The position numbers and the translations under genes were made by a program. This document shows positions 42,426 to 51,231 of a stretch of 64,000 bases of DNA, piece after piece. The first letter of the stretch is position 1. The number at the start of each line of letters is the position of its first letter. The notes under the pieces were generated by a model. It was not told the origin of the DNA. It made no database searches and saw nothing but the letters and a program-made list of their open reading frames with translations. The stretch comes from Kofleriaceae bacterium (GTDB lineage Bacteria; Myxococcota_A; Polyangia; Haliangiales; Haliangiaceae), in contig CBDCCZ010000004.1 of assembly GCA_965215005.1 (NCBI GenBank), positions 96,001 through 160,000 of the forward strand. The letters are read 5' to 3'.

Positions 42426-43326
42426 AGCACCACCAGTACGCGCGGGCGCTACCGTAGCGGTGTGTGCCCCTGCGAGTCCAGTGGTACCGGAGCGGCTCGC
42501 CAAGGGCCTGGAGCGGCTCGGGGCGCGGTTTCGAATCGTTACCGATCCCGGCATCTTCGAGAAGGCTCGTTATCTGGCCGGGTCCGATGAGCGCCGCGCC
42601 GCCGAGCTCAATCGCTTCTTCCGCGATCCCGACGTGCGGGCGATCATCGTTGGCCGCGGCGGGTACGGCATCATGCGTATCTTGCCGCTGCTCGATGCCG
42701 CAGCGCTTCGTGCCGATCCCAAGGTGCTGGTCGGCTTTTCAGACTGCACCGCGCTGCTGTGTTGGGCGCTCGCCACTGCCAACGTCCGCGGTATCCACGG
42801 ACCGGTCGCCAGCCAGCTGGCCGACTTACCGGCCGAAGACGCGGCCTGGCTGTATCGATTACTCGAGGATCCGCAGCCGCTCGGAACCGCGCCGTTTCAG
42901 CTGCACTCGGTGGGGCGAAGGGCGCGTGGAGCGGTGGCGGGACGCCTCGTTGGCGGCAACTTGTCGTTGCTTTCGCATCTCGTTGGCACCCCCTATGAAA
43001 TCGACCTCGACCAGGCTGTGCTACTCGTCGAAGACCTCGGTGAGCGGCCGTACGCGATCGATCGCTACTTTACCCATTTGGGTCTTGCGGGGCGTCTGGA
43101 TCGGCTGGCCGCTGCGTTGATTGGCGACTTCACCCGCTGTGAGCATGGCCTCGATGGTCCCGTCGAAGACGTGATCGACGAGCGTTTGCGTGCCTACGGT
43201 GTCGCGGCCCTGGGCGGGTTGCCCAGCGGTCACGGCGAACGCAACGTAGCGCTGCCGTTCGGAGGGCGCTGCGAGCTCGACTTCGACCGCGGACTATTGC
43301 GACTTGTCGATGCCGCGGTCGGTTGA
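42400..43326 (+). CDS. ldcA: LD-carboxypeptidase (peptidase S66)
   Basis: VCAPASP, YLAGSD..RA.EL, RGGYG, GFSD (Ser), EDLGE (Glu), GHG (His); start 42400 or 42418. Confidence 0.9.
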
Positions 43327-43336
43327 GTCGCGCGGC

Positions 43337-43630
43337 TCAGTGCACGATTGGCTCGTCGTCGCCGGAGCCGATGTCGATGGCGCCGAAGCGTTCCTCGTAG
43401 CGCTCGAGGTTCTTTTGCAAGGCGCGCACGAGCCGCTTGGTGTGCCGCGGCGATGAGATGATGCGAGCGCCCACTTTGGCGATGGCAGTGCCAGGCTGAA
43501 TGAAGGAGAAGTCGAGAACAAACTCATTCTCGGCGTGATTGATCAGCACGAGGTTGGAGTAACGGCCGGCTGCCGTGTGCTCGTCCATCTGGACCTGAAT
43601 CTTGGGACCTTTGCGAACATCGTCGGACAT
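43337..43630 (-). CDS. DUF3467-like small protein
   Basis: G.YSNL..I.H...EF.LDF....PG...AKV..RII.SP.H.KRL..AL..N..RYE..FG.I. Confidence 0.85.
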   Translation of the reverse strand: MSDDVRKGPKIQVQMDEHTAAGRYSNLVLINHAENEFVLDFSFIQPGTAIAKVGARIISSPRHTKRLVRALQKNLERYEERFGAIDIGSGDDEPIVH

Positions 43631-43788
43631 GGCGACTGTGTATCGCATTGCCGCGCCGGTGGTGGCCGTTGGCGATCGCGGCGTGCGTTGCGAACGTCAC
43701 GAGGCCGCGTCCCATGCCGCCGCTCAAGACGCGACGCGCTGGTCGGTCGCTGCGCGGAGCAAGCGCGATGACCGCGAATGGAGAGGGA

Positions 43789-43907
43789 GCGCAGCGGCCA
43801 ATCGAGCGTAACGCAACGTGCTGGGGAGGGCGGCCGGGCGAGGATTTTTGGGGGAGGGAGGTTCACCCGGCCTATATGTTGCTGCGTTACGTGACTGGCC
43901 GCTGCGC
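43789..43907. ncRNA. Candidate structured RNA, unit 1 of a tandem pair (long hairpin with two GGGGAGGG / CCCTCCCC loops)
   Basis: gcgcagcggcca/tggccgctgcgc 12-bp closing stem, cgtaacgca/tgcgttacg, ggccggg/cccggcc; strand unresolved. Confidence 0.55.
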
Positions 43908-43944
43908 GACGTCGCTCGAAAGCGACGTACAACGGAAAGAGGAT

Positions 43945-44066
43945 GCGCAGCGGGCGAGTTCTCTCACGAGACGGGGTGCTGGGGAGGGCGACCGGGCCCT
44001 ACTTGCTTGGGGAGGGATTCGAGCCCGGTCCTGTGGTTAGCCCCATGAGGGATCGCACCGCTGCGC
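43945..44066. ncRNA. Candidate structured RNA, unit 2 of a tandem pair
   Basis: gcgcagcgg/ccgctgcgc, tctctca/tgaggga, gggg/cccc, gaccgggc/gcccggtc; same two motifs as unit 1. Confidence 0.55.
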
Positions 44067-44589
44067 GTTGATACGATAACTAAACGCCGCTCGCGCTCCT
44101 GACGTTGGAGCTGCGCGTGGCGCTAACGACGCCGTCATAGACAGCGTGCGCTACCTTTGCGGCGCATTCGCCGCGTTTGCTCGCCCAACTCATTCTCACC
44201 ACCACCTGGTTCCTTCGAGCGCGGCGTTCCAATAACACCCCTCGATCGACGGCGTCCACTCCAACCAGGTGGCAAAGTTCGATCGCGTCCAACGCAGCGC
44301 AACGCGGCGACCACGCCGCTTCTGAGCGGGTCGGGGTAGGCGCGCGCGGGCTGGACACGGTCATGTCCCGCTCGCAAAGCAATCGATGTACCAAGCTCGC
44401 TACGTGCGGTAGCGAGCGCTAACCTGCCGATCCTGCGCATGCTCCCGCCCGGCTCAACCGGGCATCCTGGTGCCGCTGGCGGTTTCATTGGCCACTGCGC
44501 GCGGTTCGATCTCGCCAGTGACCGGTCGAGCAGCCACCGGCGAGCGTCACATAGGCAACATTCGGGAGTGGGCGCGCTATGGTCTGCCG

Positions 44590-45015
44590 ATGCGCGCTTT
44601 GGGCTTGGATGTCGGCATGAAGACCATTGGCGTGGCGGTATCAGACGAGCTCGGCCTCGCGGCGCATCCCGTGACGACTCTGGCGCGCCGCGGAACGGCG
44701 GCTGACGTCACGGCGGTGAGCGAGCTCATCAGCGCGCACGCCGCCGGCGCCGTGATCGTGGGATTGCCCCTGGACTTGCACGGTCACGTCGGTCCGAGAG
44801 CGCGCCGGGTGCGGGTATTTGGCGCCGCGCTGGCCGAGCGACTGCCCTCCGACGTCACGTTGGTGGAGTGGGACGAGCGGTTTTCCACGGTAGCGGTCGA
44901 GCGGGTGCTGCTCGAGGCAAATCTCTCTCGTCGGCGGCGCAAGGAGGTCGTTGACAAGCAAGCCGCGGCATTCATCCTCCAGGGGTGGCTCGACGCTCGC
45001 CGGTCGACGCTGTAA
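44590..45015 (+). CDS. ruvX: YqgF/RuvX family nuclease
   Basis: [38 protein letters not shown]. Confidence 0.95.
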
Positions 45016-45027
45016 CGTCGGTCGACT

Positions 45028-46116
45028 ATGCCCAAGCGGTCGTTCCGCATAGCCCTGGCGATTGTCGTTGGCTCGCTGCTATTCGTTGGCGCCGCCGCGA
45101 TCTACTTCACCCAGCGCGCGCTCAACTATCCCGAGACCCCGCACGCGGGCACCGGCGCAGAAGTTCCGGTCACGATCGAGCGAGGCATGAGCTTCCCGGA
45201 AATTGCTCAGCGCCTGACCGAGAACCAGATCATCGACCGGCCGCGCTGGTTTCGGCTGTACGCGATGCATCGCGGCGTGACGACCAAGATCCGAACCGGT
45301 GATTACGTCCTTGCCGACGACATGAGTCCTCGCGAGGTGCTCGACGAGCTGCTCGAAGGCGTTCAGGACGTGAGCGTGAGCGTGACCATTCCCGAAGGTC
45401 TGCACATGCTCGAGATCTTCGCCATCATCGAAGCAGCGGGTATCGCTTCGGCCGCTGAGCTCGAAGCGCTGGCGCGGGATCGAGCGTTTCTCGACGCGCG
45501 TGGCATCGAGGGCGACAACGTCGATGGTTACTTGTTCCCCGAGACCTATCGGTTTCCCGCGCCGAGTAAGCCCGAGCTGGTGCTCGACACGATGATCAAG
45601 CAGCACCGCATGGTCTGGAGCCAAGTCAAAGAAGCCAATCAGCGCTCCTACGAGCGGCTGCGCGACCAGCTCGGCTGGACCGATCGCGAGTTCTTAGTCA
45701 TGGCGTCCATCGTCGAAAAGGAGGCGGTAGTGGACGAAGAGCGGCCGCGCATCGCGCAGGTATTCATGAACCGCCTCACGATGCCTAGCTTCACGCCACA
45801 TCGCCTCGATACCGATCCGACGATTCGCTATGGCTGCATGGTGCCGGTGCAAAAGAGTGAGGGTTGCAAGATTTGGGATCCCACGCAGCGGTTGCGTCGC
45901 GCGCAGCTCGACGATAAGGACAATCCTTACAACACGTATCAGCACGATGGCTTGCCACCAGGTCCTATCGCCAATCCTGGTGAAGAAGCGATGGCCGCCA
46001 CGCTGAGCCCCGACGGCTCGAAGTACCTCTACTTCGTATCGCGCAACGACGGCACCCACGTTTTCTCGCGCAGCCGCGCCGAGCACGAGCGCGCTGTCGA
46101 TAGCTTTCAACGCTGA
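45028..46116 (+). CDS. mltG: Endolytic transglycosylase MltG
   Basis: N-terminal [28 protein letters not shown]...[16 protein letters not shown]. Confidence 0.95.
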
Positions 46117-46317
46117 GCATTGCCTACCTCACGGCACACGTGCCTGCACAGGCGCGCGCCGCATGGCGTTGCGATCTGTGGCCAGGGTGCTACGCCGTAA
46201 GAGCAAAGGGGGCGGCTAACGGTGCGTTACTTTTACCGCTCCGCGGCGGCGTGGTACCGTTTTACGAGCAGCCCTCACCGCTTCCGTGTTTTCGACTCCA
46301 CACACCGAGGAACGAGC

Positions 46318-48360
<2,043 letters not shown>

Positions 48361-48370
48361 ACCAGCGCTC

Positions 48371-48586
48371 ATGGATCCCAAAGGTGTCGGCCCGGTCACT
48401 ATCGAGCTGAACAACACCGCTGCTCAGCTCCTCGCCAGCCTGTGCGTGGAGCTGGGCACCGATGATGCGGTCGGTGTTTTGTCTCGGGCACTGGGGCTCT
48501 TCGAGATGGCCCAGCGAACGCGGCGTCGCGGCGGCCGGCTCGTGTTCATCAACGAGCGCGGCGAGGAAGCCGACGTGGTCATCTGA
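48371..48586 (+). CDS. Small protein, possibly ribbon-helix-helix (CopG-like)
   Basis: 71 aa: short strand VTIEL, helix, turn LGTDD, helix [14 protein letters not shown] 12 bp upstream. Confidence 0.6.
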
Positions 48587-48622
48587 TCACTGGCCAACCG
48601 GCGCTATGCGGGGATTTCACAA

Positions 48623-51231
<2,609 letters not shown>

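Follow-up and report, generated by a model that had tools for sequence, protein, structure and literature searches.

The gap between a DUF3467 gene and ruvX in a Kofleriaceae genome contains two rod-shaped units (U1 and U2) that we interpret, with a probability of roughly 0.6, as a tandem-duplicated and diverged copy of a conserved Kofleriaceae small RNA, which would be driven by sigma54 and would repress translation in trans through CCCUCCCC loops acting on G-rich ribosome-binding sites. The units are likely members of a hitherto undescribed family of sigma54-type sRNAs with C-rich loops. The window, that is, the whole stretch of 64,000 nucleotides that was analysed, showed the following features at this locus:

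43337-43630, minus strand: DUF3467 gene, flanking marker (Pfam PF11950, E 2.4e-23)
43777-43788, minus strand: C/U-rich tail 3' of U1, with no intrinsic terminator beyond it (sequence, terminator scan)
43789-43907, minus strand: U1 (119 nt), rod with GCGC...GCGC ends and CCCUCCCC at the apical loop (43851-43858) and the 3'-side internal loop (43823-43830)
43909-43928, minus strand: spacer hairpin of 8 bp, with a UUCG loop on this strand (sequence and fold)
43930-43944, minus strand: pyrimidine-rich single-stranded tail 3' of U2 (sequence and fold)
43945-44066, minus strand: U2 (122 nt), rod with GCGC...GCGC ends and CCCUCCCC at the apical loop (44009-44016) and the 3'-side internal loop (43981-43988)
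44067-44367, minus strand: predicted structured leader of ~300 nt, unconserved in sequence (fold)
44378-44394, minus strand: predicted sigma54 -24/-12 promoter, TTGGTAC-N5-TTGCT, with a putative start near 44367
44489-44495, minus strand: third GTGGCCA half-site, 101 nt above the -24 box, with a counterpart in relatives
44507-44538, minus strand: predicted enhancer of tandem half-sites, resembling those that precede the sigma54 promoter in relatives, at a distance of 144 nt from the -24 box on its upstream side (profile of the relatives' upstream regions)
44590-45015, plus strand: ruvX (YqgF), flanking marker (Pfam PF03652, E 4.5e-40), followed by mltG (PF02618)

Two diverged units in the DUF3467-ruvX gap

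The putative start of the DUF3467 gene was set at 43630; the longest ORF begins at 43648, and homologues mostly align from about residue 7. Downstream of ruvX-mltG, the window also carries prkA and DUF444, both identified by Pfam, and then a 500-aa ORF (46222-51231, plus strand).

An earlier note on this DNA had described both units and the perfect hairpin between them, and its description was borne out: U1 and U2 lie where it had placed them, with a spacing of 156 nt between closing stems and 158 nt between copies of a common block, and have in common the closing stem, this 15-nt block (GTGCTGGGGAGGGCG) and a second GGGGAGGG. The alignment of the two had 69 identical columns, and their stems had diverged while pairing and loop motifs were retained, as the note had also proposed. 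Of the middle stems that it had quoted, the pairing was kept in both units, but the register of U2 differed in the minimum-energy fold of the minus strand. The 15-nt block occurred twice in the 6.2-Mb genome, both times in this gap, and four of the five CCCTCCCC sites in the window (1.65 expected) fell within the units; with only two copies at one locus, the abundant REP-like repeat that the note had feared was not what we found. A blastn search of the gap against 60 relatives gave short matches in 6 of them (E<=0.001), none over U1 or U2; a metagenome scan with the 21-mer shared by the units gave 3 matches, none with the rod or the flanking genes; and none of the 4 overlapping ORFs had a Pfam match above the cut-off.

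When both strands were folded, the z-scores of the two units against shuffles were -11.3 and -5.0 on the minus strand and -4.8 and -3.0 on the plus strand. All four CCCUCCCC motifs were predicted to be unpaired on the minus strand (probability 0.85-1.0), whereas the G-runs of the plus strand were largely paired (mean unpaired probability 0.35-0.70). U1 and U2 were single rods, each folding independently in the predicted precursor. The count of G-U versus A-C oppositions (2:0 and 0:1) was uninformative. On the folding models, the minus strand is the likely RNA, as judged from the z-scores, the loop accessibility and the UUCG loop of the spacer, in agreement with the structured minus-strand RNA with exposed C-rich, anti-Shine-Dalgarno-like loops that had been suggested. 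The GGA-bearing sponge that the same note had considered for the plus strand did not fit, the G-runs being largely paired and CsrA (PF02599) having no match in the window's genome (92.8% complete); thus neither the exposed GGA loops nor the host protein of CsrB/RsmY-type RNAs were found.

A conserved element upstream of ruvX in Kofleriaceae

Relatives of the window's DUF3467 protein came mostly from Kofleriaceae (myxobacteria), in metagenome-assembled genomes, and the DUF3467 / ruvX-mltG arrangement was widely retained among them. A conserved element was present in 48 of 58 distinct DUF3467-ruvX gaps, the window's own gap being counted among the 10 without it. A covariance model of this element (R1) found exactly one copy each in 101 of 147 genomes from the order; all of these belong to the family and they represent 5 genera; the counts of 101 and 48 take in two unpublished genomes (G084 and G085), both left out of all models. 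The element consisted of a sigma54-type box with upstream repeats, a leader, a covarying rod of ~115 nt and a terminator with a C-rich loop and a U run. By sequence match, a candidate sigma54-type site preceded all 58 elements examined (best match within 60-450 nt).

The relatives' rods were 100-124 nt long and had GCGC at start and end. Their apical loop had the consensus UUCCCUCCCCCUCAUC and ended in CUCAUC, complementary to GAUGAG, and the 3'-side internal loop read UCUCCCCC, with CCCUCCCC in its place in the genera g15 and g9. The near-invariant blocks of the rod were UUCGACUC, GAGGCAAC and AGUA, and the internal-loop blocks were no less invariant than the C-loops. In the rod alignment 97.3% of cells were paired, compared with 36-50% in slid-register controls, and there were 45 two-sided changes against 13.7 in shuffles, in a kind of test that kinship inflates. 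The length of the C-run varied by eye, which would shift the short ATG-started frame of the rod.

In 47 of the 48 gaps the element faced ruvX, and in loci L054, L140 and L068 it faced DUF3467, its own terminator included; that it was inverted along with its terminator in some relatives argues for a free-standing RNA. The same observations bear on whether the rods belong to the 5' leader of the DUF3467 mRNA and act in cis on how stable it is or how it is translated. The units share the strand of DUF3467 and lie ~160 nt from its start with no intrinsic terminator in between, and a rod found in locus L141 is also directly upstream of DUF3467. However, most relatives have the element facing away from DUF3467 and closed by a terminator, in the inverted cases the terminator stands between element and DUF3467, and in L128-L130 and L133 the element adjoins ruvX without a DUF3467 match in the locus retrieved; we therefore regard a cis-acting leader as quite unlikely.

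The canonical single-copy element, exemplified by L050:1014-1178 (minus strand) and present in 100 further genomes, is a better object for an Rfam-type family than the pair in the window. No family of Rfam 15 matched the relatives' element, and viral contigs gave 0 matches to its motif. Searches of the open-access literature turned up no description of the element, which might be covered by the M. xanthus ncRNA survey that PMC8538405 cites, by supplements of RNA-motif screens or by papers under subscription.

Some further arrangements were seen in these gaps. In genus g16 (L041-L044, L070) the gap was without the element and apparently held a small ORF. Before the rod, the leaders of g11 and g6 (L140:1540-1660, L133, L134, L136) had additional hairpins or stretches that were rich in C. 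At about 970-1050 of L240 (g13), a C-run follows a long hairpin whose apical loop is C-rich; this may be a remote relative. Simple motif searches were confounded by unrelated CCCTCCCC-bearing tandem repeats in g6 and g12 (L218, L219, L249, L251).

Promoter, leader and 3' end of the predicted transcript

Promoters recognised by sigma54 have a -24/-12 consensus, with a start site at a known offset. A box of this type was located ~310 nt upstream of U2 on the minus strand, and was the sole match in the window to a strict sigma54 consensus (0.03 expected; 3 matches in the genome), a consensus picked after the site had been seen. Taken alone, the box scored 0.7 under the first matrix of the relatives, compared with 11.9-26.7 for the training sites. 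The predicted enhancer (44507-44538) was the window's top match to the relatives' upstream profile, with an E of 1.5 that alone is not significant, and the counterpart of the third half-site stood at 98-100 nt in relatives (e.g. L039, L138, L139, L140, L069, L092). A joint promoter and enhancer matrix, trained on relatives only, ranked the 44378-44394 site 9th of 12.39 million genome positions; by our own arithmetic, the chance of a top-9 site falling in this gap and strand is roughly 0.0007. Among the other top sites, those ranked 1, 2 and 4 (plus strand) preceded long open frames and that ranked 3 was without a C-loop rod, so they were set aside.

The earlier note had proposed a sigma70-type -10 box (TATCGT, 44073-44078) at the edge of U2. 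We found 0 sigma70-type sites in 43600-44650, and the predicted sigma54-type site would move the promoter ~310 nt further up. The multi-unit precursor that it had suggested now appears probable, with two rods downstream of one predicted promoter. Among relatives the distance from promoter to core was 82-360 nt. Homologues of the 94-codon ORF in the leader were sought and none was found. The terminator scan run with the sigma70 search gave 0 terminator-like sites at the units; since the window's copy is without the relatives' terminator, its 3' end would come from processing or Rho, or transcription would read through into DUF3467.

These results also allow the idea to be weighed that the units are a decaying relic, or a hairpin pair acting at the DNA level, with no RNA function. 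The lack of a close homologue, the missing terminator and the weakness of the promoter when taken alone would agree with it, but the stems have diverged between the copies with pairing and loop motifs maintained, folding is strand-asymmetric, the units occupy a single locus, and promoter and half-sites are in register. We hold either to be very unlikely.

Relationship of the units to the element

Neither R1, nor a broader rod model (R2), nor an nhmmer profile of the relatives detected U1 or U2. Because the covariance models miss the units, homology is not shown by sequence, and the case for it is made by position, architecture and promoter model. The units are without the near-invariant blocks of the relatives' rod and without the terminator hairpin with its C loop and U run; the window's copy also differs from the element in being double, in having a loop without CUCAUC and in having a leader longer than most. 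It resembles the element in occupying the DUF3467-ruvX gap, in its GCGC-ended rods within 100-124 nt that carry an apical and a 3'-side C-rich loop, and in its predicted sigma54 box with half-sites at 144 and 101 nt, spaced as in relatives.

A rod descriptor, written with U1 and U2 known, was passed by 59 of 69 relatives' rods and by 4 of 162,140 candidate windows in the window's genome. U1 and U2 were two of these four, and the remaining two overlapped each other at a single branched locus that appears to be coding; the reversed-genome control also yielded one branched locus. When a third model (R3) was built from U1 and U2 alone, a rod of a g15 relative was the top among 74 matches, loop on loop, at E 0.07, and another rod was eighth. 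At E<1, this reciprocal search brought back 2 of the 18 canonical rods and missed the other 16. Such a two-unit model had been recommended in the earlier note; across the 147 genomes it gave no significant unit-like copy in the other 146, the matches besides U1 and U2 being 3 at E 0.3-0.96. The apical stems and loops of the units could be aligned with rods of g15, g9 and g6, over 5 consensus pairs only.

A tree of RuvX and MltG (46 rows) excluded the window's genome from the carriers' clade (support 91) and placed it in a sister group that was poorly resolved. Genera missed by R1 hold other diverged C-loop elements in the same neighbourhood. In g8, L141:1877-1987 is a rod with GCGC ends that has diverged strongly (z -5.5); its apical loop is C-rich, it lies directly upstream of DUF3467 on the strand that corresponds to that of U1 and U2, and it has no clear sigma54 site. 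In g7 (L246:2119-2296 and L247), a 559-aa ORF with a strong sigma54-type site (score 16) is closely followed by a C-rich multi-hairpin with a C-loop terminator, and a gene may have been inserted between promoter and RNA in this genus. The diverged forms of g8 and g7 were also missed by R2.

We consider it probable that U1 and U2 share common descent with the relatives' element. The competing view is that an independently evolved pair of C-loop sRNAs, with the same mechanism and rods of separate descent, displaced the family element in this gap. That no profile joins the sequences of units and element, and that the window's genome lies outside the canonical clade, would be expected from it, and according to PMC4615179 sRNAs with C-rich loops presumably have convergent origins. 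Against this, gap, length, GCGC ends and two-loop layout are identical to those of the element, promoter and half-site spacing are as in relatives, and diverged forms exist in g8 and g7, which makes an independent origin unlikely.

Comparison with known RNAs

The Rfam check that had been advised for the units gave no credible family. Pxr, which the earlier note had named for comparison, proved to be the closest parallel among known systems. The Pxr literature, in the portions available (PMC5684412, PMC5568312, PMC10217877, PMC11928866, PMC8538405), describes an RNA that blocks fruiting-body development, has a sigma54 promoter with an enhancer region and depends on its first loop to function. 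Processing of longer forms yields long and short ones, Cystobacter carries tandem paralogues, the host has no Hfq, and the reported origin is in Cystobacterineae. We compared it through its Rfam model (RF01812), published primers and descriptions. Like Pxr, the RNA studied here is myxobacterial, has a predicted sigma54 promoter with an upstream enhancer region and, in the relatives, a 3' terminator stem, and its host has no Hfq match. The primers in Table S1 of PMC5568312, as far as that source was available, give the first stem-loop (SL1) as GGTGGTTCCCCCC, which is close to GGTGGTTCCCTCCCCC of the relatives' rod, both being C-rich. Primer GV358 matches the relatives' rod over TGAGGCAAC, but this was disregarded because GV358 serves pxrA RT-PCR.

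Membership in the Pxr family was not supported. Pxr consists of three short stem-loops (SL1-SL3) in a model of 109 positions, whereas the units and the element are single rods of 100-124 nt, and it lies directly downstream of the pxrK/pxrR two-component genes, in contrast to the DUF3467 and ruvX flanks in the window. The Pxr model gave no match at E<=10 on window positions 42500-45500 and 43770-44080 and on L050 1000-1300, no match at E<=1 on 7 loci, and nothing above the cut-off over the window's genome, 5 relatives and 151 genomes of the phylum, in a scan without any positive-control match. It is doubtful, on balance, that the Kofleriaceae element, the window's pair included, is a deep homologue of Pxr.

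Three other RNAs with C-rich loops were considered. The accessible sections of PMC6486639 describe 6C (RF01066) of actinobacteria as pairing its C-rich loops with G-rich mRNA, chaperone-free, in a high-GC host, and those of PMC3771888 describe sX13 (RF02232) of Xanthomonas as having three C-rich loops that act on G-rich motifs near translation starts, with Hfq dispensable. The C-rich loops of the units are likewise predicted to be unpaired (0.85-1.0), and the relatives' RNA has three C-rich stretches, as sX13 has, if the terminator loop is counted. However, 6C is made of adjacent short hairpins in another phylum, and sX13 has three separate apical loops, unlike the long rods of the units. On L050 the 6C model scored 15.8 bits against a cut-off of 47 and the sX13 model 13.1 bits against 50, and neither matched the units. 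Cuckoo RNAs (RSs0680/CcsR), to which the earlier note had likened the units, are described in the part of PMC4615179 available as 2-4 adjacent short hairpins with the loop CCUCCUCCC in alphaproteobacteria. The units share with them repeated modules, a conserved anti-SD-like loop and variable stems, but are long rods, carry CCCUCCCC instead of CCUCCUCCC, have one copy of it in an internal loop and occur in a Kofleriaceae host, so that loop motif, hairpin layout and host all speak against the assignment. The best reading by analogy is that the element may resemble 6C, sX13 and cuckoo in mode of action, while the membership tests assign it to none of them.

Proposed mode of action

According to the proposed mechanism, an enhancer-binding protein would activate sigma54 polymerase at 44394-44378 on the minus strand, giving a precursor of ~600 nt or more that would start near 44367 with the ~300-nt leader. 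Each rod would fold alone and then probably be trimmed out, like Pxr from its longer forms. The unpaired CCCUCCCC loops would form G-C pairs with GGAGG-type ribosome-binding sites and block the translation of other genes, and this pairing would proceed without Hfq, as reported for 6C and sX13; Hfq had no match in the window's genome (92.8% complete).

In a crude gene call, GGAGG and AGGAG preceded ATG in 2.9% and 3.8% of cases, compared with 1.2-1.9% for control motifs, and the genome appears to use such sites. Of 89 genome sites with GGGGAGGG, the full 8-nt complement of the loop motif, none was located 3-12 nt before an ATG; GGGGAGG preceded an ATG at 8 of 422 sites, and the five that were tried formed predicted duplexes. 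The ribosome-binding site of a pilC-like gene reads GGGGGAGG, but 12 of 12 orthologues did not keep the G-run, and the gene was rejected as a conserved target. A scan of sequencing runs listed no RNA run, which is neutral as to expression, and a contig covering the stretch free of differences may be where this DNA came from. In L229 (genome contig C4, upstream of 299100), a perfect complement of the relatives' apical loop, not of the window's, lies just before the ATG of a 508-aa ORF with a DUF1801 domain, and L236, L237 and L239 (C23:7900, C3:145434, C3:237943) have high-scoring enhancer and/or sigma54 sites before long open frames, possibly of the same regulon.

The rod or its C-rich loops might instead titrate a protein or RNA, with no pairing to mRNA starts. 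The invariance of the relatives' internal-loop blocks, equal to that of the C-loops, suggests protein contact; moreover, no conserved mRNA target was found, and a pair of identical modules would fit a sponge. The window's units, however, retain the C-loops and lose the invariant blocks, CsrA has no match in the genome, and known C-loop sRNAs pair with G-rich mRNA (PMC6486639 and PMC3771888, in the parts available), and we hold this function to be distinctly unlikely. In the preferred reading, a diverged copy repressing in trans, the window's copy has kept C-loops and promoter, lost the otherwise invariant blocks and the terminator, and been doubled; as a natural experiment, it suggests that the C-loops are the part that works.

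In the literature examined, Pxr is the sole myxobacterial sRNA with a described developmental role and is reported to be confined to Cystobacterineae. A conserved sigma54-type sRNA in about 100 Kofleriaceae genomes is a candidate global riboregulator for a second myxobacterial lineage, through which the origin of Pxr becomes testable. If the deep homology were true, a sigma54-driven, processed C-loop gatekeeper of multicellular development would be far older than the origin in Cystobacterineae published for it, and duplications would have occurred independently in Cystobacter and in the window's lineage.
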